Source: an uncultured Planctomycetota bacterium (GTDB lineage Bacteria; Planctomycetota; J058; JACQDU01). Taken from it: 16,115 nt of DNA. The translations under genes were made by a program, and so were the position numbers. The stretch's first letter is position 1. Every line of letters begins with the position of its first letter. The DNA lies in the NCBI GenBank assembly GCA_964648345.1, contig CAZYLP010000081.1, positions 1 through 16,115 on the forward strand, given 5' to 3'. This document shows, in pieces, positions 3,167 through 16,115 of the stretch. The notes beneath the pieces were generated by a model. That model was not told where the DNA came from, did no database searches, and was given only the letters and a program-made list of their open reading frames with translations.

Positions 3167-5218
3167 GTGGTCGAGCGAGACAGGGACACACGCGAGCGGG
3201 ACATCCTCGTCGCGGGCAACGAGTACGCGTACGTCCAGGACCTCACGAAGGGCGACATCGTCCTCTACGTCGGTCCGACGAAGATCAGCCTCTCGAACAC
3301 GGAGCGGCTCGTCGTCCTGCAAGGAGGGCGCTTCGTCCCGGTGCGCAGCGAGGACGGCGGCGCGACGGGTGTGTCCGCGTTCGTCGCGGCGACGAGCTCG
3401 CAGTACATCGTCCTCGAGAACCCGCCCAAGGATCCGGCATCGCGTCCCGTGAAGGGGAGCAACTCGGCGGTCGAGCTCCTCACCGGCAAGAAGGTCGTCG
3501 TGCCCGGCCCGGCGACGTTCCCTCTCTGGCCGGGCCAGCGCGCGAGCGTCGTCGACGGGCACGAGCTCCGCGAGAACCAGTTCCTCTGGCTCCGCGTCTA
3601 CGACAAGATCGAAGGCGACCCGAGCCCGATCGGGACCGGCAAGATCGTCCGCGGCTCCGAGGTGAGCTTCTACATCCCGAAGACCGGCCTCGAGGTCGTC
3701 CCGGACCGGACGGGCTACGTCCGCAACGCCGTGACGCTCCGGCGCAACACGGGCCTCCACGTCCGCGCCGTCAGGGAGTTCACGGCGGGCCCCGACGACG
3801 ACGTGCCGGCGGGCAGCTACGCCGCGGGGCAGGGGATCTTCATCAAGGACCGCGAGGGCTTCTTCTTCCCGACCGGCGACCTCGAGGTCGTCGGCGAGGT
3901 CCGCACGATCCCGCTCAGCGACAAGGAAGGGATCTACGTCCGCGACATCGAGACCGGGCGGATCTTCACGGAGATCGGCCCCAAGAACTACCTCCCCGAT
4001 CCGACGCGCGTCGAGGTCGTCACGCGCACGCTCGACCCCGAGACCGCGAAGCTCTACGGGGTCGCCAACCACGAGAGGGGCAAGGCGGTGTCGGTCTACA
4101 TCCCGCCGAGCTTCGCCGTGCTGGTGACCGCGAAGAACAAGCGCGAGGTCGTGCGCGGCCCGCAGACGCGGATCCTCGCGTTCGACGAGGACCTCGAGGT
4201 CCTCAAGCTCTCGACCGGCAAGCCGAAGACGGACGAGACGCTCCTCTCGACGTGCTTCCTCCAGACCGACGGCAACAAGGTCTCGGACATCGTGCGCGTG
4301 AAGACGCGCGACCACGTCGAGCTGAACGTCACGCTCTCCTACCGCGTGTCCTTCATGCCTCGTGAAGGGCACCAGGGCGACGAGCGCTGGTTCAACGTCA
4401 AGAACTACGTCGCGCTCCTCTGCGATCACCTCGCTTCGATCGTGCGCGGAGCGGTCCGCGCGCACTCGATCGAGCAGTTCCACGCGCGGAGCACCGAGGC
4501 GATCAGGAACGCCATCCTCGGCGAGAAGCACGGCGACGAGCCGCGCCTCGGCCGGCGCTTCGAGGAGAACGGCCTCACGGTCTACGACGTCGAGGTCCTC
4601 GACGTGAAGATCCTCGACGCGGAGGTCGAGAAGCTCCTCTCCGACGCGCAGAAGGCCGGCATCGCCGCCGACGTGACGCGGCGTCAGGAGGAGCTCCGCC
4701 TCGGCGGCGAGAAGCTCAGGGAGCAGGTGACGGCGCAGATCTACGAGGCGCAGATCGTCACCCTCGCGCGGGCCGTCGAGCTCGAGAACGCGAAGTGGCG
4801 CGTCTCCGAGGCGAAGGCCCAGGCCGGCGTCGAGCTCGACAAGCTCGACCGTCTCGGCCGCGCGCAGAACGAGGCCGAGGCGCTCGAGATCTCGAGCGCC
4901 GCGAGGGCCGCGGCGTCCGGCCGCGAGAACGAGGTCGAGGGCAAGGCGCTCCAGGCTCGCGTCGCCGCGTTCCGCGAGCAGATGGGCGCCCTCGCGCCCG
5001 AGCTCGTCACGACGATCATGGTGCTCGGCGAAAAGCAGCTCGCCGGGGAGCTCACGAAGAACCTCTCGCCGCTCGCTATCCTCGGGGGAACGTGCGTGGG
5101 CGTGGTCGGGGAGCGGCTCCTCGGCGCCCTCCCGCTCGGAGTGACGGGGCCCGACGGCGCGGCCAAGGCCGTCTCGACGGCCGAGGCCCGGGCGAGCAAG
5201 GCGAACGGGAGGCGCTGA
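3167..5218 (+). CDS. Major vault protein (MVP) homologue, 683 aa: MVP repeat domains, shoulder (SPFH-like) domain and cap-helix coiled coil
   Basis: Alignment by eye to human MVP across the whole length. N-terminus: [21 protein letters not shown]...ERLV vs [22 protein letters not shown]...ERVL. Repeat 2: FPLWPGQ vs FPLYPGE. Shoulder: [28 protein letters not shown] vs [46 protein letters not shown]...[23 protein letters not shown] vs LSAGRPKRPHARRALCLL...[37 protein letters not shown] vs HKNSARIIRTAVFG. Cap-helix: [42 protein letters not shown]... Ala/Glu/Leu-rich coiled coil. GTG start with upstream ACAGGGG. Confidence 0.85.
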   Translation: [683 protein letters not shown]

Positions 5219-5245: not shown

Positions 5246-5791
5246 ATGGACTTCGAGTGCACCGACGACGTGCCGTTCCCCGCGGAGGAGGTGCACCGCC
5301 TCCTCCGCGACGACATGACGGCGATCCTTCCGTTCCTCTCCGACGTCGAGGCGATCGAGGTCAAGGAGCGGAAGGAGGAGCCCGACGGGATCCGGATCAC
5401 GAACTTCTGGCGCGGCTCGATCAAGGCCGCGCCGAAGATCGCCCAGAAGTTCATCACGAAGGACCTCGTGAGCTGGACGGACCACGCGTTCTGGCCCTCG
5501 GCCGAGCGGCGCGCGGAGTGGCGGCTCGAGCCGCGCGTCGGCGCGGGCGTCTTCGAGTGCACGGGCAAGACGAGCGTCCTCGACGGAGCTACGCCGGGGA
5601 CGTGCCGGATCCGCGTCGAGGGGAAGCTGGCGATCTACCCCGAGCGCGTCCCGGGCGTGCCGCGGATCATGGCGAAGGCCGTGCGCGGGACGATCGAGAG
5701 CGTGATCGTCGCCATGATCGTCCCGAACATGAAGACCCTCGCGCGCGGCGTGAAGGGCTACTTCGAGTCGCGGAGGCGTGAGCCAGGTTAG
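5246..5791 (+). CDS. SRPBCC-superfamily protein (START/Bet v1/polyketide-cyclase-like, DUF2505-like), probably co-transcribed with the MVP gene
   Basis: 181-aa ORF beginning about 27 nt after the MVP stop, with GAGGTC just upstream of the ATG. Mixed alpha/beta pattern with a C-terminal amphipathic helix (AKAVRGTIESVIVAMIVPNMKTLARGV) typical of SRPBCC ligand-binding folds. Family assignment is by eye only. Coordinates follow the ORF track; my own base counting near the start differed by 1 nt. Confidence 0.55.
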   Translation: MDFECTDDVPFPAEEVHRLLRDDMTAILPFLSDVEAIEVKERKEEPDGIRITNFWRGSIKAAPKIAQKFITKDLVSWTDHAFWPSAERRAEWRLEPRVGAGVFECTGKTSVLDGATPGTCRIRVEGKLAIYPERVPGVPRIMAKAVRGTIESVIVAMIVPNMKTLARGVKGYFESRRREPG

Positions 5792-6430: not shown

Positions 6431-7102
6431 GTGGGGATTTCCTACGAGCACTGGTTCGTCGTGCGCGACCTCGACTGGCGCCCGGCCAAGAAACACGGAG
6501 AGGCGATCCATCGCCTCCTCGTCGATTGGGGCCTCGTCCGCGAGAAGCCGAAGCTGTTCGCGGTTGACGAGGGGCACGAGAGAGAAGTGCAAGGCGCCGC
6601 TGTCGTGCGGGACGGCGCCATCCCTGACGAACTCTGGATGCGCTACAGCCCCATGGTCGAAGGCGAGGCCGCCGAACGGGTCGTGGGACCGCTCGAGGAG
6701 GAGAGCGTCCCGGAGGCAAGGCCGTTCATCTGGGCCATCACCGTCGTCCTCGGTCGCGACTACAAGATCATCGACGCTCCGGACTTCGGACCGGTCTCCA
6801 CATCTCTCGTGGGAGGGCGGAGACCGACGCACGCGGTCGGCGCGATCGACGCCGTCGCCGCGACGTGGGATCAGCCGCCGCCTCCCACCGAGGTCGCATT
6901 CTCCGATCCCATGACGGGTGATCCCCGCGAAGTGCCCGACGGGTTCGTCGGGCTCATGAGGTCGGGAGTCATCTTCGACTGCGACAGGGCTCGCCCCGAG
7001 TTCCCACGGAGTTCCGATTCCCGGCTTCCGAACCGCGAGTTCGTCCGAGCGCTCGAGGGTGCCCTCGAGACCGGGGTTATCGAGATCGGCCGGTACGTCT
7101 GA
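6431..7102 (+). CDS. Hypothetical protein (223 aa)
   Basis: Plus-strand codon usage is typical of the host (ttc, gac, gag, ctc, atc, high GC3), whereas the antisense ORF 6206-6832 is Arg/Pro-rich. GTG start at 6431. No recognisable motif (MGISYEHWFVVRDLDWRPAKKHGEAIHRLLVDWGLV...). Confidence 0.55.
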   Translation: MGISYEHWFVVRDLDWRPAKKHGEAIHRLLVDWGLVREKPKLFAVDEGHEREVQGAAVVRDGAIPDELWMRYSPMVEGEAAERVVGPLEEESVPEARPFIWAITVVLGRDYKIIDAPDFGPVSTSLVGGRRPTHAVGAIDAVAATWDQPPPPTEVAFSDPMTGDPREVPDGFVGLMRSGVIFDCDRARPEFPRSSDSRLPNREFVRALEGALETGVIEIGRYV

Positions 7103-7112
7103 CGACGACGCG

Positions 7113-7547
7113 CTACTCGATCTCTTCGAAGCGGTGAGTGCCGGCGAGTATCGCGTGCACTACGGGCGCCCACGCGACCTCGACCCACTCGAGGTCGTTG
7201 AACGGAGGCACCCGCTCGTTCGACCACTTCGCCTGACCCAGGAAGTACTTCATGGACGGGGCTGCCAGGTGATTGCTCGTGTGAACGATCACGGGGCAAG
7301 TCGGAGTCCGACCGGTCAGGAAGAGAACGACATCGGTTCCTGACCCGGGATCGTCGCCTTTCTCCTTGGCGACGAGGTCGTGATCGAGGGAGATGAGAAC
7401 ACACTCGCCGAGGTGTTCCTCGAGCCACGCGATCATGTCGTGCGCTCGGGGGAAGACGTGGACGCTCAGCGCTCCTTCTTGCGCGAGCTGTCGGAGCATT
7501 GCATCGCGACGTCCTTCGTCGTCCTCCAGGATCGCGATCGCGCGCAC
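7113..7547 (-). CDS. Stand-alone receiver (REC, CheY-like) domain protein, 144 aa
   Basis: Receiver hallmarks in order: acidic pair after beta1 (RAIAILEDDEGRRD), phospho-acceptor-like Asp at the end of beta3 (CVLISLDHDL), conserved Thr/Ser (VIVHTSNH) and Lys (SMKYFLGQAKW). GTG start at 7547 is chosen to include the DD pair; an ATG at 7500 would truncate it. The rest of track ORF 7113-8393 is antisense to the methyltransferase gene and is rejected. Confidence 0.55.
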   Translation of the reverse strand: MRAIAILEDDEGRRDAMLRQLAQEGALSVHVFPRAHDMIAWLEEHLGECVLISLDHDLVAKEKGDDPGSGTDVVLFLTGRTPTCPVIVHTSNHLAAPSMKYFLGQAKWSNERVPPFNDLEWVEVAWAPVVHAILAGTHRFEEIE

Positions 7548-7646
7548 ATCGCACGTTAGCTGCGTACCCCGATGTGCGACCAGGTGGTACCACGACACGG
7601 CCCGGCTGTGATACGGTCGCGCCGAACGCTCGCAGGGGGAGAGACC

Positions 7647-8459
7647 ATGAATCCGAACAAGGCGCTTTGGGAGAAGGGCGACTTCACCGAGATCGCCTCT
7701 TTCATGCGGCAGTCGGGCGAAGCCGTCGGCAACTCGCTCGGAGTCACGAACACGATGCGCGTCCTCGACCTCGGCTGCGGCGACGGCACGACCGCGGTCC
7801 CGATCGCGAGGCTCGGTGCGGAGGTCGTCGGGATCGACATCGCCCGGAACCTCGTCGAGGCCGGCAACAAGCGCGCCGCCGCGTTCGGGCTCGGCCGCCT
7901 CAGGTTCCAGGAGGGCGACGCCTGCAAGCTCGAGGGCGTGCCGGACCGCTCGTTCGACCTCACGCTCTCCGTGTTCGGGGCCATGTTCGCGCCCAGGCCG
8001 TTCGACGTGGCGAAGGAGATGGTCCGCGTCACGAAGCCGGGCGGCCGGATCGTCATGGGCAACTGGATCCCTGGAGACCCGACCTTCGTCGCGCAGCTTC
8101 TGAAGATCAGCTCGGCGTTCACGCCGCCGCCGCCCGAAGGGTTCGTGAGCCCTATGACGTGGGGCGTGGACACGAACATCTACGAGCGCTTCGGGGCTGC
8201 CGGCGTGCCCCAGCAGAAGATCACGCTCGCGCGGGAGACGTTCACCTTCATCTCCCCCGACAAGAGCCCGGAGCAGGTCGTCGAGTCGTTCCGCAAGTTC
8301 TACGGGCCGACGATGAACGCCTACGAGGCCGTCGAGAAGAACGGGAAGACGGACGAGCTCCACGCGCAGGTCGTCGATCTCGCGAGGTCGCACAACAAGG
8401 CGACGGGCGGCGGAACGTCGATCCCGGCGACGTTCCTGCGAGTCACGGTCTCGGTGTGA
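7647..8459 (+). CDS. Class I SAM-dependent methyltransferase (Methyltransf_11/25-like), 270 aa
   Basis: Motif I VLDLGCGDGTTAVPIARLGAEVVGIDIA, acidic post-I residue, and motif II/III region RLRFQEGDA...DLTLSVFGAMF...KPGGRIVMGNW. Strong RBS GGGGGAGAG 5 nt before the ATG at 7647. The track start at 7572 adds 25 improbable residues. Confidence 0.8.
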   Translation: MNPNKALWEKGDFTEIASFMRQSGEAVGNSLGVTNTMRVLDLGCGDGTTAVPIARLGAEVVGIDIARNLVEAGNKRAAAFGLGRLRFQEGDACKLEGVPDRSFDLTLSVFGAMFAPRPFDVAKEMVRVTKPGGRIVMGNWIPGDPTFVAQLLKISSAFTPPPPEGFVSPMTWGVDTNIYERFGAAGVPQQKITLARETFTFISPDKSPEQVVESFRKFYGPTMNAYEAVEKNGKTDELHAQVVDLARSHNKATGGGTSIPATFLRVTVSV

Positions 8460-8847
8460 CGCCCGGCCAGACCCGCCGCCCGTGCACGAAGACGGCGGCG
8501 ACGGTCTCGGGCTCGAAGGTCATGTGGAACCCTCGCTCGGGCGAGAGGAACTCCTCGGGCAAGAGGTCCTGCACGCGCCGGAACGAGAGGAGGTCGTCCT
8601 CGATCCCGACGAACTTCATACCCCCGAAGCCGACGCGCGCGGAGCCTCCCTCGTCGTCGCAGAAGACGACCTGATCCGTCGGGACGGGCACGCCGCGGCC
8701 ACCCGGGAAGTGGACGAAGGTCCCCGGCGGACCGTTCTGGACGATCGGGAGGCTCTTCGCGACGAGCTTGCCGCGCGTGATCCGGCTACCCTCGAGGAAC
8801 TCGACGAGCACGGGGATCTTCAAGACATCGACGGGATCAGAGTTCAT
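8443..8847 (-). CDS. Hypothetical protein (about 134 aa)
   Basis: ORF with protein-like composition (MNSDPVDVLKIPVLVEFLEGSRITRGKLVAKSLPIVQNGPPGTFVHFPGG...). ATG at 8847 is preferred over the track start at 8982, which lies inside the AT-rich palindromic intergenic region. The 3' end overlaps the convergent methyltransferase gene by 17 nt. No family recognised; weak PilZ-like impression only. Confidence 0.4.
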   Translation of the reverse strand: MNSDPVDVLKIPVLVEFLEGSRITRGKLVAKSLPIVQNGPPGTFVHFPGGRGVPVPTDQVVFCDDEGGSARVGFGGMKFVGIEDDLLSFRRVQDLLPEEFLSPERGFHMTFEPETVAAVFVHGRRVWPGVTPRP

Positions 8848-9077
8848 GGCCAACGAGACGGCAAGCCTAGCAGGTCTCGCGATGCTCTGACGACATGACG
8901 ACGGCTCGTCGACCCGCGGGCGGAACGGGATCAGCGCCGTAAACTTAAGATTACATTGCAATGCATTGCCTATGTATGACATAGGCCATTTTAGACGAGC
9001 ATCTTTACACCAGGATCGCCGTTTGATCCCGCCGGGATCGTCCGTGACCCGGACTCGGAAAGGAAGGCTGACGCCTC
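8848..9077. promoter_or_regulatory. AT-rich (about 45-50% GC against about 70% background) divergent promoter region containing three palindromes
   Basis: Perfect palindromes read directly from the sequence: CATTGCAATG (8954-8963, with overlapping ATGCAT and a flanking CATTGC direct repeat), GCCTATGT-atg-ACATAGGC (8968-8986), and GATCCCG-c-CGGGATC (9025-9039). An AGGAAGG RBS lies before the ATG at 9078. Confidence 0.45.
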
Positions 9078-9641
9078 ATGGACCTCTCTCTGTACGGACA
9101 GCCGGACGACGGCCCCTTCGACGGCCCGCTCGCGGCCAACTGCGCCGTGATCGGGTTGATCGTGATGATGCTCGTCGGCCTGGGCTTCGTCTCCTACCCG
9201 GTCGGGCTCACGCTCGCGTTCATCTTCCTGTGGGCGTTCATCGCCGGACTCATCGTCGGCGCCGTCGCCTACCTCCTCCTGCGGCGACTCCGTCAGGCCG
9301 ACAGGTCGCGGCAGCCCTCGAGCAGGATCTTCGACCCCTCGCTTCGCGCCGGCCTCGTGGCCGCGGCGACGAGCGTCGCGGCGCTCGGCATCGTCGATCC
9401 GTCTCTCGTGGCGCGCTCGACCCCGTACGCAGCCGCGCGCGAGGGAGGTCGCGCCTTCAGCGTCTCGATCCGTTCACCGCGCGCGAAGACCACGACTCCC
9501 GCCATCGCGGGAGAGGACGTCGAGCGAGCCGTCCGCGAAGCGACCGCGGCAGGCAGCACGCCGCCGGCCGAGCCTCCGCGCCCTCACCGCGAGGCCGCGG
9601 AGCCGACCTCGACCGGGTTCCTGGGCGCGCTGGGGCGCTGA
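9078..9641 (+). CDS. Small membrane protein (two predicted TM helices) with a low-complexity tail ending TSTGFLGALGR
   Basis: Hydrophobic stretches AVIGLIVMMLVGLGFVSYPVGLTLAFIFLWAFIAGLIVGAVAYLLL followed by a basic RRLRQADR. ATG at 9078 with upstream AGGAAGG. The stop at 9639-9641 is 3 nt before the next gene's GTG, implying translational coupling. Confidence 0.55.
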   Translation: MDLSLYGQPDDGPFDGPLAANCAVIGLIVMMLVGLGFVSYPVGLTLAFIFLWAFIAGLIVGAVAYLLLRRLRQADRSRQPSSRIFDPSLRAGLVAAATSVAALGIVDPSLVARSTPYAAAREGGRAFSVSIRSPRAKTTTPAIAGEDVERAVREATAAGSTPPAEPPRPHREAAEPTSTGFLGALGR

Positions 9642-9644
9642 GCC

Positions 9645-10862
9645 GTGGGACCGCTCGAATCGATCGGCGAGTGGATCTCGGAGAACAGGAACGCGATCGT
9701 CGCGACCACCGCGGGCCTCGTCGTCGGCACCGGGGTCACGATCGCCCTCCTCGCGACGGCTCCCGTGAGCATGCCCGCGCTCCTCGCCGTCGGAGGAGCG
9801 GTCGCGGCGGGCGCTTTCATCGGGACGGCGTTCACGTACGTCGCGCTGAGCGCGTTCGACGGCGCCGACCTCCAGGACCGGAGCATCGTCCTCAGGGCGA
9901 CGGCTCACGCGACGGTGGCCGCGGGTCTGAGCTTCCTGACCGTCGGCGCGCTCGGCCCCGCCGGCGGAGTGGCGACGGGCCCCGCCGGCGTCGCGCTCGG
10001 CGAGTCCTCGCTCGCGACGATCGCCGCCCAGGCGCCCACGCGGTTCGTCGTGGGCGCCGGCGCGGCGGGCGCGCAGCAGCTCGCGTCGAACCTGATCGAG
10101 GGCCGGCCCTCCGAGGAAGGGATGCCGACGGCACTCCTCCTCGGCGGGACGCTGACCACCGTCGCCACGACCGCGGGAGACCTCCACCAGGGCGTCTTCG
10201 CCCCTGACCCCATCGCAGACGCTCGGCCCGTGCTCCGCCACTCGTCGTCTCTCGAGCAGGACCTCGCTTACTACCGCGCCCAGGGTTGGAGGATCCGCTA
10301 CGGCGAGCCAGGACGCGGCACGTTCATGACCGACCCCGCGCCCGGCGTGCCAGGAGAGATCGTGATCGACCCACTGCGGCGTCCCTCTCCGACCTCGCTC
10401 ACGAACGGGCTCGCACACGAGGTCGGCCATGCGAACGCCGGCGCCCCTCCGACGTACGGTCCGAGCGCCACGATCGCGACGCGAGAGGAGTTCGCACGGA
10501 TCAACGTGCTCCAGCAGCTCGACGGCGAGGGGATCGCCGTCCTCAACGAGGCGACCGTGCGGAGCGAGATCCTCGCGGCCGGGGGACCCGACATCGGTGG
10601 GAGTCCTGCGATCCCGAGGTACGCCGACATCCTGAACGATCCCTCGATCGGCGCGTGGGAGCAGGCCCGGCGGTTGGGCAACAACTACAGGTACGAGACG
10701 CCGAGCACCAACCCAGCCGTCAACTACGGCCGCTACTGGAGCGCCTACTACGAGGACTGGTGGGACAGGGTCATGGGCTCGGGTCCGCTCACGGTCACCA
10801 AGGGGACGGCGACGACCGCGCCGGCGACGTCTCCCGGGATCCTCGGCGCGATCGGACGCTGA
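9645..10862 (+). CDS. Membrane-anchored protein with Gly/Ala-rich hydrophobic N-terminal region and a C-terminal HExxH...E (gluzincin-like) putative metallopeptidase domain; ends TSPGILGAIGR
   Basis: N-terminal about 180 aa of glycine-zipper-like hydrophobic helices (GLVVGTGVTIALLATAP..., LLAVGGAVAAGAFIGTAFTYVALSAF...). Motif NGLAHEVGHANAG followed about 20 residues later by REEFAR, the HExxH + E zincin arrangement. Aromatic-rich C-terminal segment NYGRYWSAYYEDWWDRV. Plus-strand codon usage is good. The antisense ORFs 9474-11198 and 9584-9886 are rejected. Confidence 0.6.
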   Translation: MGPLESIGEWISENRNAIVATTAGLVVGTGVTIALLATAPVSMPALLAVGGAVAAGAFIGTAFTYVALSAFDGADLQDRSIVLRATAHATVAAGLSFLTVGALGPAGGVATGPAGVALGESSLATIAAQAPTRFVVGAGAAGAQQLASNLIEGRPSEEGMPTALLLGGTLTTVATTAGDLHQGVFAPDPIADARPVLRHSSSLEQDLAYYRAQGWRIRYGEPGRGTFMTDPAPGVPGEIVIDPLRRPSPTSLTNGLAHEVGHANAGAPPTYGPSATIATREEFARINVLQQLDGEGIAVLNEATVRSEILAAGGPDIGGSPAIPRYADILNDPSIGAWEQARRLGNNYRYETPSTNPAVNYGRYWSAYYEDWWDRVMGSGPLTVTKGTATTAPATSPGILGAIGR

Positions 10863-10879: not shown

Positions 10880-11818
10880 TCAGCGGAACTTCGTCGCCCA
10901 GCCGAGACCGCCCGCCTCGCCCGCCGCGTTCATCGTCCTGAGCTCGTCCCAGTCCTTCGCGACCACGGCGTAGTCCGGGTAGGGCCCGGGCTCCTGCGTG
11001 TGGAAGATGTAGGACTTCATGCCGTTGTCCTTGTAGACCTCGGCATCCGAGGTCCTGTTCCCGAAGCCGTAGAGGAGCTTCGGGAACGACGGCCTCAGGG
11101 ACTTGAGCACGCGGTTTCTCTGGTCGTAGTTGTTGGCCTTGTCGCCCTCGGCGCGGAGGAGCGCCGGCCCGCGCGGGAACTTCCAGTGCGCGAGCCACGC
11201 CTTCGACTTCTGCGTGTAGGTCCAGTCGCGGCCCGTGATGTAGACGACCGTGCAGTCCTTCGCGATGTCGCTGAGCCCTCTGGGCGCGCCGGGGACCGGC
11301 GGCAGCTGCTCGATCGGACGGGCGACGACCTCGGCCCAGTGGAGCGCGGAGATCGTCATGTCGATGTCCGTCACGAGCATCCGGCGCTTGGGGTCGCGGA
11401 CGGCGACGAGCGCGTACGAGTCCGATGCCACGTACGTGATGCCGGAGTCGTCGTTGTCGAGCGCTCCGATGAAGCTCCCGCCGCCCGCGAGCCGGCCGGT
11501 CACGAGGAGGTCGCCCGGCGTGGAGGGCACCTTGACCGAGAGCTCGGCGTAGCCCTTCGCGTTCGACTCGGCGGTCCCGAGGACGGCTCCGTTCGCGCGG
11601 AACTGGACCTTCACGCCCTTCAAGTCGTAGGGCGTCGCGCTGTCGCGCCGCACCTTGAACTTGACCTTCGCGGTCTGCGTCCCGCTCGGGACGAGGACGT
11701 CGAAGCCGGTGAGGAGGGCCGCCTTCTTGATGGGGTCGGCCTGCGCACTGCCCGTGAGAGATGCGACGAAGCCCCCGCAGAGCAGTGAGGCGACGATGGC
11801 ACCCTGCCTCGATCTCAT
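10880..11818 (-). CDS. Secreted App1-like (DUF2183/LNS2) HAD-superfamily phosphatase, 312 aa
   Basis: Signal peptide MRSRQGAIVASLLCGGFVASLTGSAQA. HAD motif I VTDIDMTIS (DxDxT), conserved Lys region KANNYDQRNRVLKSLRPSFP, and motif IV-like YGFGNRTSDAEVY (App1 has GDSGQ.D). N-terminal beta-sandwich-like segment. ATG at 11818 with upstream GGGTGA. The track ORF extends to 12115 through an Arg/Gly-rich improbable N-terminus. Confidence 0.65.
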   Translation of the reverse strand: MRSRQGAIVASLLCGGFVASLTGSAQADPIKKAALLTGFDVLVPSGTQTAKVKFKVRRDSATPYDLKGVKVQFRANGAVLGTAESNAKGYAELSVKVPSTPGDLLVTGRLAGGGSFIGALDNDDSGITYVASDSYALVAVRDPKRRMLVTDIDMTISALHWAEVVARPIEQLPPVPGAPRGLSDIAKDCTVVYITGRDWTYTQKSKAWLAHWKFPRGPALLRAEGDKANNYDQRNRVLKSLRPSFPKLLYGFGNRTSDAEVYKDNGMKSYIFHTQEPGPYPDYAVVAKDWDELRTMNAAGEAGGLGWATKFR

Positions 11819-11940
11819 GAAATCACCCGTGATGAGTAGGCCGTGTGCACGAGTCGTGCCTCGTCCCAACTCGCGAAGGGCCGAGCGATAGCGTCTCGCG
11901 GGTGCGACGCATTCCGGGGAGCTGGAGCCGGAGGTGCTAC

Positions 11941-13041
11941 TCAGGTACTCATCCGCTTCCAGACCGGGACCGACCCCGGAGCGCCGCCGCGGATCCGCGC
12001 GATCGCCGCCTCCACTTCGCGCCGCACCTCGAACTCGGCGTCGCGAGCGGCCGCCTCGAGAGCCGGGAGAGCGTCCGCCGTCCCGACCTCCGCGAGGAAG
12101 CGCGCCGCGCGCCACCGCACGAGCTTGTTCGCGTCTCCGAGCGTCTCCAGGATCGCAGGCTGAGCGGCCGGGTCACCGAGATCGGAGAGGCTGTCGCCCG
12201 CCGTGCGCCGGACCGCAACGGCCTGGTCGCGGAGCGCCTTGCAGAGGGCCGGAACCGCATCGGCGCTCGCGGTCGCTCCGAGCCCGGCCGCGGCCCACCG
12301 CCGGACCTCGGTCCTCGGATCATCGAGCGCGAGCGCGAGGAGAGGGATCGCCGCCGGATCCGTGCCGAGCTGCTTCACGGCGCGGAGACGCCGCCGCCAG
12401 TCGTCGCTCCGGAGCTCGCGCTCGAGCTCGCCTGCCGATGCCGGCGGAGCGGCGGGCGGCCGCTCCGCGCCCGTCTCCTCGGCGAGGAGACGCGCGAGCG
12501 CCTCCTCGTCGAGGAAGGCCTCGATCTCGGCCGCGACGCTCGCCGCGACCTCCTCCACGCTGCCGTAGCGGACCCCCCGGTCCACCCACGAGCGCTCCTT
12601 CAAGTAGTCGCCGCCCGTCCGTGCCTGGATCTCCTTCGCGACCACGCCGAAGCGCGGGTCGAGCGCGACCCGCTTCTCGGCCTGGCCGTCGGTCGCCCTC
12701 ACCTGGATCGGGACCTGCCGGTACGTCTGGACCGAGACGCGGACCTGACCGCCCGGGCCAGGAGAGCTCGCCGGCGCCGGCGCGACGGAGCCTCCCGCGA
12801 GGACGGTCTTCGCGGCCGCGATGATCGGCTCCCAGTCGGCCCGCGGATCGCGGTTGAGCGTCACGAAGTCCGCGCAGATGAAGACGCTCTCGACGCCCGG
12901 GACCTCGAGGAGCTTCGCGACGAAGGGCGCGGCGCCCGAAGCGTTCGTGCGCGTGTACGTCGACGTCGAGCCGGCCGGACCCGTGAGGTTCAGCTTCATG
13001 CTGTTCGGGTTCGGCGTCGTCTCGATCGAGCGCAGCAGCAT
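11941..13041 (-). CDS. Nfu_N (scaffold protein Nfu/NifU N-terminal) domain protein fused to C-terminal HEAT/PBS-lyase repeats, 366 aa
   Basis: N-terminus MLLRSIETTPNPNSMKLNL matches the Nfu_N signature (M.I.TE.TPNPN.LKF). C-terminal tandem repeats of the type DPRTEVRRWAAAGLGATASADAVPALCKALRDQAVAVRR...LGDPAAQPAILETLGDANKLVRWRAARFL are HEAT_2-like. The N-terminal 161 residues of the track ORF are Arg/Glu-rich and antisense to a better plus-strand gene, so the start is placed at 13041. Confidence 0.65.
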   Translation of the reverse strand: MLLRSIETTPNPNSMKLNLTGPAGSTSTYTRTNASGAAPFVAKLLEVPGVESVFICADFVTLNRDPRADWEPIIAAAKTVLAGGSVAPAPASSPGPGGQVRVSVQTYRQVPIQVRATDGQAEKRVALDPRFGVVAKEIQARTGGDYLKERSWVDRGVRYGSVEEVAASVAAEIEAFLDEEALARLLAEETGAERPPAAPPASAGELERELRSDDWRRRLRAVKQLGTDPAAIPLLALALDDPRTEVRRWAAAGLGATASADAVPALCKALRDQAVAVRRTAGDSLSDLGDPAAQPAILETLGDANKLVRWRAARFLAEVGTADALPALEAAARDAEFEVRREVEAAIARIRGGAPGSVPVWKRMST

Positions 13042-13071
13042 GGCGGTGAGAGGGAGTATAGGCTCTCCTCG

Positions 13072-13527
13072 ATGAAGGTCGAGGTCTTCGACGTCCCGCC
13101 CGGCGCTCCGCACCCGTTCGAGCCAGCGGACGCGCGCTACTTCGTGCAGCGCACGGCGAACCACGCGTGCACGCGGCTGTTCGAGGACGGCGCGAAGACC
13201 CGCGACCTCGACTTCCTCTCCCTCCACTTCCCGACGGGTTACACGAGCCTCTGGGCCCTCGAGCGCGCGGCGCTCTTCCTCCCGGACGGGCTCCACCGCT
13301 GGCCCCTCGGCCCCGCTCCGCGCCCCCCGAACGACCGCGAGGGGCGGTTCTTCCTCTTCGGCGACGACGGCTCGGAGGTCTCCTGGAACCCCGGGCCCGA
13401 CGGGCAGACGATGGTCCTCGGCTACACGACGCTCGCGGAGGCGGAGGCGGCGCTCGGGCACCCCGCTCTCCGGCGCGCCGACGCGATCGTGATCGCGCGG
13501 CTCAACGAGGACATCTTCTGGCACTGA
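13072..13527 (+). CDS. Hypothetical protein (151 aa)
   Basis: This is the 3' end of long track ORF 11845-13527. Only this part has protein-like composition (MKVEVFDVPPGAPHPFEPADARYFVQRTANHACTRLFEDGAKTRDLDFLSLHFPTGYTSLW...). ATG at 13072. It is divergent from the Nfu_N gene with only about 30 bp between the start codons. Confidence 0.45.
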   Translation: MKVEVFDVPPGAPHPFEPADARYFVQRTANHACTRLFEDGAKTRDLDFLSLHFPTGYTSLWALERAALFLPDGLHRWPLGPAPRPPNDREGRFFLFGDDGSEVSWNPGPDGQTMVLGYTTLAEAEAALGHPALRRADAIVIARLNEDIFWH

Positions 13528-13533
13528 GGCCCG

Positions 13534-16115
13534 TCACTTCTTCGGCGCGAGCTCCGCGAGGACCGTCCGCGCCCAGGGCGCATGAGGCCCGTTCGGCTCG
13601 ACCTCGAGCAGGAGCCGCACGTCGGCGAGCGCCGCCTCCCTCTGACCGAGGAGGCGTCGCCCGCCGGCCCGCGCCATGAGCGCGACCGGGAGGCGCGGCT
13701 CGAGCGCGAGCGCGTCCGTCGCATCCGCGGTGCCTCCTTCGAGGTCTCCCTTGGCGACCTTCGCGACGGCCCGGCGCGCGAGGAACCGTGCGCGGTCGGC
13801 CGGAGCCGCTCTCTCGAGGAGCCCCGTCAGGTCCGCGATCGCCGCGTCGTGGTCGAGGAGCGCGGTCAGGGCCGCGGCGCGCAGCTCGACGGCATCCGTC
13901 CGCGAAGCGTCGAGCTTGATGGCCTCGCTGTAGGCTTGCACCGCCGCCTCGAACTCGCGCCCCTGCGCGAGCCGCGACCCGAGCTGGACGAGCGACTCGG
14001 CGTCGCGGTCGCCCTCGATCTTCGCCACGGCCCACTCGTGGAGGAGCGCGTAGCGCTGATCCCGGGGCCCGATGACCGACGCGAGGCGCTTCAGGTCCGC
14101 GCGCGCGGAGGCCTTGTCGCCGAGGCCGGCGTACGCGGAGGCGCGCTGGAGGAGGGCCAACGGATCGGCGGTGTGAGCGGCGAGGACCGCCGAGAAGTCC
14201 TCGACCGCTCCCTTGTACTCGCCGGCCTGGAGGCGCATGATCCCGCGGTCCCGGTGCAGCTCGATGAGCCCCGCGTCCTCGGCCTTCTCGATGAGGGCGG
14301 TGTAGATCGCGATCGCCTCGTCGTACCTCTTGAGGAGGTAGAGCGCCCCGGCGCGCCCGCGGAGCGCGCGTATCTCCGTGGGAGCCTGCGCGAGGGCCTT
14401 GTCGAAGTCCTCGAGCGCGTCGGTCCCGCGGTGGCCCGTGAGGCGCGCCAGTCCTCGCTGGACCCACGCCTCGGGGTTCGATGGCGCGAGCGCGATCGCG
14501 CTCGTGCTCGCGGCCACGGCGCCGTCGATGTCGCCCGCCTCGCGGCGGCGCTCGGCGGTCGCGATGAGCTGGTCCGCGGGGCCGGAGCTCGCGAGACGCT
14601 CGAGCGCGCGCGCGACCTCCTCGGCCTCCTCGGAGCCCGGAGGCGCGAGCTCGAGCTGCGCTCTCAGGTCCGCGCGCGCCTCCGCGACACGCCCGAGCAA
14701 CTCCTTGATCCGGGCACGTCCGCGGAGCGCGGGCCGGTACGTCGAGACGAGCTCGAGCGAGCGATCGAGGTCCTCGAGCGCGCCGCGGAGGTCGTTCGTG
14801 CGCGACCGGAGCTTCGCCCGGTTGGCGAAGAGCTCGTGCCGGTCCTGCCGGGACGAATCTGCGAGGAGCGCCGTGTGGGCCGGCACCCCGCGCCTCCAGT
14901 CGTCCATGAAGAAGTAGACGTCGGCGCGGCCGCGGAGCGCGTTCGGGTCGCCGGGCACGAGCTCGAGCGCGGCCGCGAAGTCGCTCTCGGCCTCGGCGTA
15001 CCGTCCGAGCTGGAGGTGGGCGGTGCCGCGCGCGGACCAGGCGGCGGCGTTCGCGGGCTCGCGCTCGAGCGCGCTCGTGAGCGCGGCGACCGCCTCCTCG
15101 AAGCGCCTCGCCTCGAACAGCGCGATGGCCTCGGCGGCCGAGAGCGGCTTCGCGGCCTTGACGGCCGTCGGGGGCGAAGGGCTCGCCGGAGGACGAGCCG
15201 GCGGCGGCGGAGGAGCGTGAGCCCGCAACCCCGCCGCGATGGCGGCGACGAGACCGGCGACGCCGGCGACGAGGAGTGCCGGGAGGAGAGGCGACCGGCG
15301 GCGCGTCCGCCCCTGCTCGAGCGCATCGCGGAGCGCGGCCGCGTCCTTCGGCCGGAACGAGGGGTCGCGATCGAGGGACCGCTCGACGATCCGCGCGAGC
15401 CAGGCCGGCGCATCGGGGCACGCGCGCGCGAGCGGCTCGAGCCGGCCGCGCTCGATGCGAGCGACGACCTCGACCGGGTTCGCGCCCGGGAACGCGGGCC
15501 TCCCCGCGAGGGCCTCGTAGAGGATCGCGCCCAGGGAGAAGACGTCGCAGGCCGGCCCGGCGCTCGACGCGTCGCGGAGCTGCTCGGGCGCCGAGTAGCC
15601 GAACGAGCCGAGGAGCGAGCCCGTGGCCGTCAGCCCGCCGCTCGCGCTCCCTCCCGAGACGTCGCGGCGGAAGTGCTTCGCGAGGCCGAGGTCCGCGATG
15701 AGCGGCCTGCCGGCGCGGTCGAAGAGAACGTTCGCGGGCTTCAGGTCCCGGTGGACGACGCCCTTCTCGTGCGCGTGCGCGATCGAGCCCGCGAGCGCGA
15801 GCCCGAGCTCGAGCGCGTCGCGCCACGGGACCGGCGCCCCGAGCCGCTCGGCGAGCGTGCCCCCTTCGAGGAGCGGCATCGCGAACCAGGGTCCCTCGGG
15901 CGCGGTCCCCGAGTCGATGATCGGCACGAAGCCCTCGCGCTCGCCGAGGAGCGCGAGGAGCCGGCGCTCGCGCTCGAAGCGGCCGACCCGGGCGTCGGTC
16001 GGGTCGCCGCCGAGGAGCTTGACGGCGCCCTCGACCTCGCCCCTGCGCGCGCGGGCGACGCCGCCGCTGCCGCCGCGGCCGATCTCGCCGAGGAGCTCCC
16101 AGTCGCCGAGGCGTC
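13534..16115 (-). CDS. Hanks-type Ser/Thr protein kinase with one TM helix and a long C-terminal TPR-repeat domain. 5'-partial: the N-terminus lies beyond the window end
   Basis: Translating the minus strand from the window edge gives the kinase N-lobe (LGEIGRGGSGGVARA glycine loop, AVKLL lysine motif), then AMPLLEGGTL hinge, HRDLKPANVLF catalytic loop, DLG (DFG-like) and SAPE motifs. TM segment LLPALLVAGVAGLVAAIAAGL. More than 400 aa of TPR-like Ala/Leu/Arg repeats ending LAELAPKK. The track's start at 15927 is an internal GTG. Stop codon at 13534-13536. Confidence 0.85.
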   Translation of the reverse strand, partial: RLGDWELLGEIGRGGSGGVARARRGEVEGAVKLLGGDPTDARVGRFERERRLLALLGEREGFVPIIDSGTAPEGPWFAMPLLEGGTLAERLGAPVPWRDALELGLALAGSIAHAHEKGVVHRDLKPANVLFDRAGRPLIADLGLAKHFRRDVSGGSASGGLTATGSLLGSFGYSAPEQLRDASSAGPACDVFSLGAILYEALAGRPAFPGANPVEVVARIERGRLEPLARACPDAPAWLARIVERSLDRDPSFRPKDAAALRDALEQGRTRRRSPLLPALLVAGVAGLVAAIAAGLRAHAPPPPPARPPASPSPPTAVKAAKPLSAAEAIALFEARRFEEAVAALTSALEREPANAAAWSARGTAHLQLGRYAEAESDFAAALELVPGDPNALRGRADVYFFMDDWRRGVPAHTALLADSSRQDRHELFANRAKLRSRTNDLRGALEDLDRSLELVSTYRPALRGRARIKELLGRVAEARADLRAQLELAPPGSEEAEEVARALERLASSGPADQLIATAERRREAGDIDGAVAASTSAIALAPSNPEAWVQRGLARLTGHRGTDALEDFDKALAQAPTEIRALRGRAGALYLLKRYDEAIAIYTALIEKAEDAGLIELHRDRGIMRLQAGEYKGAVEDFSAVLAAHTADPLALLQRASAYAGLGDKASARADLKRLASVIGPRDQRYALLHEWAVAKIEGDRDAESLVQLGSRLAQGREFEAAVQAYSEAIKLDASRTDAVELRAAALTALLDHDAAIADLTGLLERAAPADRARFLARRAVAKVAKGDLEGGTADATDALALEPRLPVALMARAGGRRLLGQREAALADVRLLLEVEPNGPHAPWARTVLAELAPKK

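Follow-up and report, generated by a model that had tools for sequence, protein, structure and literature searches.

Two adjacent genes on the forward strand of the stretch of Planctomycetota DNA analyzed here (16,115 nt, 70% G+C, hereafter the window), open reading frames (ORFs) 1 and 2, encode proteins with dissimilar bodies that end in nearly the same eleven residues, ...EPTSTGFLGALGR-TGA in ORF1 and ...ATSPGILGAIGR-TGA in ORF2. We find that this tail carries a motif marking a small, previously undescribed Planctomycetota family of membrane-anchored toxin-like proteins, to which ORF2 belongs through its N-terminal module (N-module) and for which ORF1 is a candidate partner protein. The features of the gene pair are as follows, all on the forward strand, with the evidence for each in brackets.

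9060 to 9067, forward: Shine-Dalgarno-like AAGGAAGG, 10 nt 5′ of the ORF1 ATG (read from the sequence).
9078 to 9641, forward: ORF1, 187 residues, ATG start, candidate effector-less partner protein (G+C at third codon positions, GC3; layout).
9120 to 9305, forward: predicted transmembrane hairpin of ORF1, residues ~15-76 (Kyte-Doolittle hydropathy, AlphaFold).
9555 to 9605, forward: Pro/Ala/Glu-rich linker of ORF1, STPPAEPPRPHREAAEP (sequence; predicted local distance difference test score, pLDDT, <50).
9606 to 9638, forward: tail motif of ORF1, TSTGFLGALGR (sequence).
9639 to 9647, forward: junction TGA-GCC-GTG, i.e., ORF1 stop, one codon and ORF2 start in a single frame (sequence).
9645 to 10862, forward: ORF2, 405 residues, GTG start, consisting of N-module, gluzincin domain, linker and tail (GC3, HMMER, AlphaFold, hidden Markov model [HMM]).
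9645 to 10199, forward: N-terminal family module of ORF2, residues 1 to ~185, with a conserved NLIEGRP segment (HMM, alignment, hydropathy).
9687 to 9851, forward: membrane hairpin of ORF2, residues 15-69 (hydropathy, AlphaFold).
10203 to 10784, forward: zinc-metallopeptidase (gluzincin) effector domain of ORF2, residues ~187-380 (HMMER, pLDDT).
10416 to 10430, forward: HEVGH zinc-binding/catalytic motif of ORF2, H258, E259 and H262 (80-sequence alignment).
10527 to 10529, forward: E295 of ORF2, predicted third zinc ligand, inside GEGIAVLNE (80-sequence alignment).
10779 to 10826, forward: Thr/Ala/Pro-rich linker of ORF2 (sequence; pLDDT <50 from residue 382).
10827 to 10859, forward: tail motif of ORF2, TSPGILGAIGR, followed by TGA at 10860-10862 (sequence).

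Both ORFs are coding genes, as evidenced by their third-position G+C bias (GC3 of 0.89 in ORF1 and 0.90 in ORF2, vs. 0.58-0.70 at codon positions 1 and 2), and each is present as a called protein in a public collection. The start of ORF2 is backed by the alignment of its first residues with the N-termini of homologues, and the stop codons are correct, leaving the tails truly C-terminal and removing the concern, raised when the pair was read from its letters alone, that miscalled start or stop codons had made the tails only seem so. That sequence-only reading missed that ORF1 and ORF2 lie in one reading frame with only TGA-GCC between them (a gap of 3 nt). The gene 3′ of ORF2 is in convergent orientation.

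The two tails are identical at eight of their eleven residues, at the exact C-terminus of each protein. Based on the composition of both proteins, a match at 8 or more of 11 positions has a probability of 2.7e-7; in 200,000 random draws, 8 was never reached. At the DNA level the final 12 codons are identical at 27 of 36 positions, and the local alignment of the DNA scores 44 as compared with 21 ± 3 (maximum 36) in 500 shuffles. The shared undecapeptide and the ~75% DNA identity over the last ~36 nt reported in the sequence-only reading are therefore both borne out, whereas its suggestion of a duplicated or recombined 3′ module, if a recent event is meant, does not fit, with half of the synonymous sites differing. 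Because different codons are used at four of the eight identical residues, approximately what is expected of unrelated codons at this codon bias, we conclude that the tail likeness is maintained in the protein sequence rather than stemming from recent copying of DNA. No further copy of the tail motif was found in the window when all six frames were scanned.

ORF2 had no match to Pfam or NCBIfam models, and a word-indexed protein search returned only the query. An exhaustive HMMER search of 1.84 billion representative sequences produced 366 matches at E<=1e-3, including 114 at E<=1e-10, to residues ~190-380, a region that AlphaFold models at pLDDT >90 (residues 190-380). Residues H258, E259, H262 and E295 are invariant in an alignment of 80 sequences, and ORF2 carries an intact predicted HExxH+E zinc peptidase site of an uncharacterized toxin family; the 405-residue product annotated as a "hypothetical protein" would accordingly be better described as a putative zinc-peptidase effector with its active site intact. 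Similarity to solved structures is weak and of the zincin type, with the snapalysin-type zinc endoprotease chains 1c7k and 4hx3 at E=0.017-0.018; Foldseek matches to selecase and Spartan were weak also (E >0.6), and the family is weakly related to Pfam DUF6782. Elsewhere the same domain occupies the extreme C-terminus behind VgrG, Tox-PAAR-like, RHS or WXG100 modules, a placement that is the hallmark of a polymorphic-toxin domain. The tail is not part of the zincin domain, as most of the 150 homologues listed end 3-20 residues past a YYxxxYExxWD helix and have no tail. A zincin subgroup (P0027, P0035, P0050, P0056, P0062, P0066, P0072, and P0105) has another recurrent tail, ...KP-x-x-F-[RVK]-A-P, and several of its members begin with a Flp/TadE-like RGLSTVEY N-terminus of the prepilin type, suggesting that this toxin domain is also delivered in another way.

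The homologue P0068 (435 residues, 27% identity) aligns with ORF2 over its full length, the hydrophobic N-terminal 185 residues included, and has the C-terminal end APPAPSSSGGFVGSLR / PSSSGGFVGSLR. It lies in contigs that are Planctomycetota-like, as judged by a neighbor gene, between cydB and a conserved lipoprotein gene. Looking up this lipoprotein in other assemblies led to a variable slot. In a Planctomycetota metagenome-assembled genome (MAG; GCA_035653775.1, locus L079) the slot holds a 262-residue protein in which the N-module is joined to an AvrPphF/EspJ-type ADP-ribosyltransferase (end PPDSPGFTDKLDEVSK / DSPGFTDKLDEVSK), and the next gene encodes a 203-residue N-module-only protein with a Pro-rich linker (end APPSEGFVRALGKAESAK / PPSEGFVRALGKAESAK). 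In a contig from the Joint Genome Institute (JGI) metagenomes (locus L082) the N-module is fused to a RamC_N/LanL-type lyase domain (end SPSESSGLVGALDHH / SESSGLVGALDHH), and the next gene again encodes an N-module-only protein, of 206 residues (end PPPSEGFVRALGKAEAPK). The slot thus holds three effector alleles on a common N-module: zincin, AvrPphF/EspJ ADP-ribosyltransferase, and RamC_N/LanL lyase. Because the L079 and L082 partner proteins are ~89% identical although the effectors they adjoin differ, they are not effector-specific immunity proteins; the lipoprotein is also conserved across the alleles. The slot, between cydB and the conserved 160-residue lipoprotein gene, occupies positions 10001-11308 in L078, 4582-5988 in L079, and 4204-5988 in L082. 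In L078 the lipoprotein gene is called at 72 residues only and may be disrupted.

The N-module occurs with the zincin domain in ORF2, P0068, P0031, and P0018, and the ORF2 copy aligns with those of P0068, P0031, P0018, and the L079 and L082 proteins. An HMM of the N-module made from non-window members only recovered ORF2 at E=1.9e-4 (database of 3,157 sequences). AlphaFold predicts helices at residues 15-38, 43-69, 76-102, and 130-152 of the ORF2 module, and ORF1, ORF2, P0068, and the L079 and L082 proteins all begin with a membrane hairpin and have no signal peptide. A family member would be built from the ~185-residue N-module with its transmembrane hairpin, an exchangeable effector domain, a Pro-rich linker that is disordered, and the motif; beside it, a translationally coupled partner would have this layout minus the effector. 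In most members and partners the motif, [ST]-x-G-[FIL]-[VLT]-x-x-[LI], follows the Pro-rich linker at 0-7 residues from the end, and MAFFT places the tails of ORF2, P0068, and the L079 and L082 proteins in a single block. As a regular expression it is matched in a background of 61,206 residues at a rate of 1.5e-4 per residue, whereas seven of the nine N-module-type proteins (with ORF1 included), as well as P0048, have it in their last 22 residues; this enrichment is descriptive only, the expression having been refined after these sequences were seen. P0031 and P0018 have no clear C-terminal copy and carry a similar element (TGGLVELL, DGIAQAL) right after the N-module and Pro-rich linker; P0048 is a zincin with a Sec signal peptide in which the motif is present and the N-module is absent. 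The recurrence of the motif in relatives of 25-30% identity with different effector domains supports the view that it is a conserved functional element and not the local duplication artifact that the sequence-only reading had considered.

The window shows no synteny with the P0068 and L079 loci and shares no other gene with them, so that the N-module is the sole constant companion of the motif. Clustering of tail carriers with a particular protease or transporter gene, proposed earlier as a check, was not seen, as no protease, transporter or secretion gene is common to the window, P0068, L079, and L082 loci. Neither ORF1, ORF2 nor the related loci have a signal peptide, PAAR, VgrG, RHS or WXG module, or secretion gene, and no allele-specific immunity gene was seen directly 3′ of the effector in the window, L079 or L082. 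A neighbor of P0048 (L085, 151-702, reverse strand) encodes a Cys/Asp-rich protein of 183 residues with a textbook PEP-CTERM end, VPEPASLLLFGLLGLGAIRRKLA, which contrasts with the ORF1/ORF2 tail. In each of the three tandem pairs, the TGA of the upstream gene is followed one or two codons later by the start of the downstream gene in the same frame (TGA GCC GTG at 9639-9647 of the window, TGA GGC CAC GTG at 5368-5379 of L079, and TGA TCC ATG at 5362-5370 of L082), and in L079 and L082 the lipoprotein gene that follows the pair is also in frame. The shared frame may be due to chance or to an origin by in-frame duplication, or it may permit low-level read-through fusions.

A word-indexed search of 5.8 billion proteins returned only ORF1 itself, and ORF1 has no match in Pfam, NCBIfam or PADLOC. 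Its layout of hairpin, helices, Pro-rich linker and motif is that of the module-only partner proteins, and it adjoins a family effector at a gap of 3 nt as the partner proteins do. The Kyte-Doolittle 19-residue mean reaches 2.58, with hairpin coordinates equal to those of ORF2, and AlphaFold predicts helices at residues 15-39 and 41-76, with RRLRQADRSR directly after the hairpin and a helical/low-complexity middle. At the sequence level, the N-module HMM aligns with ORF1 colinearly over residues 21-160 at a non-significant E=0.35, and ORF1 was not among the top matches of a second N-module HMM in which the tail was included. An hhalign comparison with the conserved N-A-I-x-G-R-P-L-x-x-G-L-G-x-A segment gave a local E=0.0035 at a probability of 9%, and global alignment with the L079 partner gave z=4.2, or z=2.1 when the hairpin and tail were left out. 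ORF1 is therefore a candidate, being an architectural counterpart of the partner protein whose homology is statistically unproven. The earlier description of the two window proteins as unrelated is weakened to the extent that ORF2 belongs to a family whose effector-less partners have the layout of ORF1, and it still holds in that homology of ORF1 is not statistically significant. An immunity role for ORF1 finds no support, as P0068 has no such neighbor and the analogous partners do not vary with the effector, and neither does a role in anti-phage defense, there being no PADLOC match.

To determine the distribution of the tail we scanned with a strict, degenerate DNA pattern, [ST][ST]xG-h-[LV]GA-h-GR-stop, and with a looser pattern for the JGI metagenomes; what these scans can detect is limited to close copies of the ORF1/ORF2 type, so that tails diverged to the extent of those of P0068 or L079 escape them, and the source genome is in neither the GTDB nor the JGI collection. 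The GTDB species-representative genomes (185,579 genomes, 596 Gb) contained two matches, both out of frame, one inside another ORF and the other in a dapA-like frame. Of 66 matches in the JGI metagenomes, 34 had true stops, and two of these were at the real C-termini of long ORFs, a CofC and an ABC permease, both without the linker and without other similarity to the family. Six matches to the tail pattern in viral contigs were taken as chance. The ORF1/ORF2-type tail appears to be specific to the family and is unlikely to be a general sorting tag; a widespread tag with a close copy of the tail is ruled out by the absence of genuine carriers from the GTDB and JGI scans. Within the window, an orphan protein of 223 residues (6431-7102) ends in ...ALETGVIEIGRYV, which scores BLOSUM 18 against the ORF2 tail, equal to P0068; with no disordered linker before it, this tail is probably a chance resemblance.

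That two proteins with dissimilar bodies share a tail is explained if an effector and the adjoining partner of one family both carry the motif, and in the window ORF2 would be the zincin effector and ORF1 would fill the partner position. As to what the tail does, we tentatively favor a short docking helix through which effector and partner would be held to each other or to a common factor. The motif hydrophobics, at i, i+1 and i+4, would fall on one face of a short helix, and this helix, on its flexible tether, would dock via the N-module and so link the effector with the partner; alternatively, it would dock on one common factor, and effector and partner would be handled as a unit. The motif is kept across proteins of 25-30% identity and three unrelated effector domains, and AlphaFold gives the ORF1 and ORF2 tails a pLDDT <50, from which both are predicted to be flexible and exposed. 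The analysis bears out that the motif is real and conserved, along with the family architecture, the intact peptidase site, and the predicted disorder of the tail; that the tail forms a helix and docks, which protein it docks on, and what the complex is for are all inferred. Among the options listed in the sequence-only reading, a partner-binding peptide stays the best, with the mechanism a matter of inference.

Several considerations weigh against a docking helix. AlphaFold left the ORF2 tail disordered and undocked on its own N-module, although the N-module alignment was shallow. The family membership of ORF1 is non-significant (HMM E=0.35), and it could be an unrelated protein that gained the tail. 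No partner gene accompanies P0068, the motif is missing from the C-terminus of P0018, and the family is known from only ~6 independent sequences. Strictly intramolecular docking, or docking on the N-module only, is disfavored because P0048 has the motif and a Sec signal peptide and no N-module.

The main alternative, which we consider unlikely, is that the tail is a membrane-binding amphipathic mini-helix that would pin the far end of an anchored protein to the bilayer with no partner involved, as in MinD and FtsA. Its core, G-F-[LV]-x-x-L, is the pattern seen in KGFLKRLFGG of Escherichia coli MinD (PMC5471200), and like the targeting sequences of MinD and FtsA the tail is a short C-terminal element. 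The hydrophobics at i, i+1 and i+4 share one helical face, the motif is always behind a flexible linker, and the internal copies in P0031 and P0018 and the secreted P0048 are compatible with such a role; a conserved partner gene would be unnecessary, which fits the absence of shared neighbors. However, unlike in MinD and FtsA, basic residues are scarce in the ORF1 and ORF2 tails (one in each), are present in the partner tails, and are replaced by acidic residues in two effectors, the L079 and L082 effector tails being acidic (DKLDEVSK, ALDHH). The hydrophobic residues number only three, AlphaFold gives coil rather than helix, and the [ST]-x-G that invariably precedes the hydrophobic pair points to specific recognition.

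It is distinctly unlikely that the tail is a C-terminal export or translocation signal, with effector and partner both substrates of a secretion machine encoded elsewhere, whether resembling the type IV (T4SS) or type I (T1SS) secretion system or new. The effector domains (zincin, EspJ/AvrPphF ADP-ribosyltransferase, LanL-type lyase) belong to kinds known from secreted toxins or effectors, the loci revealed no immunity gene specific to an effector, and the motif is C-terminal in eight proteins with flanks that are small, polar and disordered, all of which would suit such a signal. Yet there is no secretion gene at any locus examined, P0018 has no C-terminal copy and the element is internal in P0031 and P0018, P0048 already has a Sec signal peptide, the genome and metagenome scans (for close ORF1/ORF2-type copies only) revealed no further carriers, and hairpin proteins sitting stably in the membrane would be awkward substrates.

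More improbable again is a functionless relic, in which the tail came along when the 3′ end of a gene was duplicated or recombined and then simply persisted. The two genes adjoin in one frame, the DNA likeness runs for ~62 nt across the stop codon, and ORF1 is an orphan with a low-complexity body, all as such an event would leave them, but the amino acids have been kept while four of the eight synonymous sites differ, about as in unrelated codons, and the motif is conserved at 25-30% protein identity beside three effector domains.

We give very little weight to an encapsulin-type cargo-loading peptide directing both proteins into a protein shell, despite a striking resemblance. Encapsulin family-1 targeting peptides (PMC7925596) are, like the tail, elements of ~10 residues placed at the extreme C-terminus behind a flexible linker, with many Gly and small residues, two or three anchoring aliphatics and a terminal basic residue. 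Position, linker and sequence resemble Myxococcus xanthus PLTVGSLRRGG, the consensus DGSLGIGSLKG, and Thermotoga maritima NTGGDLGIRK (PMC7925596), and VGSLR, the M. xanthus core, occurs within the P0068 tail; secondary cargo can moreover be encoded apart from the shell gene (bioRxiv 10.1101/085266). The family carriers, though, are membrane proteins: all but P0048 have a strongly hydrophobic hairpin incompatible with loading into a closed shell, and P0048 is Sec-exported. Neither the window nor the 10 kb on either side of P0068 contains an encapsulin, HK97-fold or other shell gene, ORF1 and ORF2 are a loose fit to the consensus, and the partner and the L079 and L082 effector tails depart from it.

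Equally slight is the chance that ORF1 and ORF2 are one gene split by an in-frame TGA (a pseudogene, a sequencing error or programmed read-through), the first tail being an internal repeat. The single frame with TGA-GCC between the two ORFs, and the in-frame TGA plus one or two codons in the L079 and L082 pairs, are what a split gene would show, but homologues start at the ORF2 start with no ORF1-like N-terminal extension, each ORF has its own start codon, and a shared frame is expected by chance in 1/3 of cases, with L079 and L082 not mutually independent.

Least credible, and contradicted by the architecture of the tail, is a tag for sorting or processing that resembles sortase signals (LPXTG, PEP-CTERM, GlyGly-CTERM or MYXO-CTERM type) and is cut by a dedicated membrane enzyme: P-x-[ST]-x-G, a short hydrophobic run and the terminal Arg superficially mimic the order of motif, hydrophobic stretch and basic cluster, but the run is 6-7 residues and no transmembrane helix, there is one Arg, the tails of the partners bear charges (GKAESAK), an N-terminal signal peptide is absent, no sorting enzyme is nearby, and the scans, for close copies only, revealed no other carriers. 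The LPXTG, PEP-CTERM and GlyGly-CTERM signals are defined by a tripartite arrangement of motif, transmembrane helix and basic cluster, together with a signal peptide (PMC3237569). They resemble the tail in being a C-terminal suffix common to otherwise dissimilar proteins (PMC3237569) and differ in that the scans did not find close copies of the tail spread across many proteins or genomes, the window having only ORF1 and ORF2. The sequence-only reading, in which the tail matched none of several familiar sorting tags, is borne out for the LPXTG, PEP-CTERM, GlyGly-CTERM, and MYXO-CTERM types, the tail lacking both this arrangement and the signal peptide. The shared sorting signal it offered is, as a general tag, unlikely for want of sortase-type architecture and of genuine carriers of close copies in the scans.

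The family can be compared with other toxin systems. The prePAAR effectors of the type VI secretion system (T6SS), which have Eag chaperones, have N-terminal transmembrane segments and then a swappable toxin domain; the family described here has no PAAR domain and no Eag (DUF1795) gene. A C-terminal motif is not known from prePAAR effectors or from toxins fused to a PrsW peptidase. In type VII secretion system (T7SS) pairs (LXG toxins with Lap proteins; EsxA/EsxB; PE/PPE) a toxin is found beside small carrier-like proteins, a heterodimer is handled, and a short C-terminal signal takes part in recognition. Our family differs from these in having a membrane hairpin rather than a soluble helical hairpin and a motif that is not YxxxD/E or WxG, and T7SS is not known from Planctomycetota.

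Similar in design are the polymorphic toxins (Zhang, Aravind et al. 2012, PMC3482391), which likewise join a conserved N-terminal module to alternative C-terminal toxins with alleles swapped at one site, and on whose VgrG, PAAR-like, RHS, and WXG100 forms the ORF2 zincin domain also occurs. In contrast to these, the family has as its N-module a new membrane-hairpin domain that no Pfam or NCBIfam model covers, its toxin domain, normally the extreme C-terminus, is followed by a conserved motif, an effector-less carrier copy lies beside the effector, and no allele-specific immunity gene or known secretion link was found at the loci. Toxins fused to PrsW peptidases have N-terminal transmembrane segments before a swappable toxin domain as well (PMC3482391), but PrsW is an 8-transmembrane peptidase with catalytic motifs (PMC3482391), whereas the N-module is a 2-transmembrane hairpin with Gly/Ala-rich helices.

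We raise as a speculation, and a rather unlikely one, that the hairpin module, the effector-less partner and the [ST]-x-G-Φ-Φ-x-x-L motif together constitute a previously unknown Planctomycetota route for handling or delivering effectors, with the motif as recognition signal. If true, this route would put eukaryote-type effectors (zincin, EspJ/HopF2-like ADP-ribosyltransferase, OspF-related lyase) to use with no type III secretion system (T3SS), T6SS or T7SS. Confirmation would add a new polymorphic-effector carrier to a phylum whose secretion biology is poorly known, one whose two conserved ends, the hairpin and the C-terminal motif, bracket a swappable toxin and which has a companion "empty carrier." Among the effector domains are some otherwise known from type III effectors acting on eukaryotic kinases, which hints at eukaryote interactions or at self-directed (abortive) functions. 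The motif would serve as a handle for finding further members by pattern or HMM, and it makes the assembly, restraint or release of the effector testable.

The pair is preceded by an AT-rich divergent intergenic region that is likely its promoter/operator:

8939 to 8989, no strand assigned: AT-rich divergent intergenic region (~50-60% GC) with palindromes GTAAACTTAAG/CTTAAGATTAC, GCAATGCATTGC, and ATTGCCTATGT...ACATAGGCCAT (sequence, GC).

Its palindromes are possible operator sites, also for the divergent gene of 179 residues at 8443-8982. Further upstream, a bacterial major-vault-protein (MVP) homologue is encoded at 3167-5218 (MVP shoulder domain E=1e-32, vault repeats) and followed after 27 nt by a DUF2505/SRPBCC-like gene (5246-5791). 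A fragment with ~90% identity is annotated in a Planctomycetota MAG (MEZ0227854.1), and MVP homologues in bacteria have already been described (bioRxiv 10.1101/872010). A link between the tail and this gene, 4 kb upstream, finds no support, as no MVP gene is near P0068, L079 or L082. Between the MVP region and the pair are a stand-alone cyclic-phosphate-processing receiver domain (cREC_REC, E=1e-9; 7113-7592, reverse strand) and a class I S-adenosylmethionine methyltransferase (7572-8459, forward strand), the ends of whose genes overlap.

Convergent on ORF2, the gene at 10880-12115 (reverse strand) has a product that looks secreted, with an Ig-like domain and a phosphatidate-phosphatase domain of the LNS2/APP1 (lipin-like) type, which is unusual for bacteria. 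The next product (11941-13524, reverse strand) combines an Nfu/NifU N-terminal domain with 'Virulence_fact' (PF13769) and C-terminal HEAT repeats, and adjoining its gene is one for a Ser/Thr kinase with TPR repeats (13534-15927).

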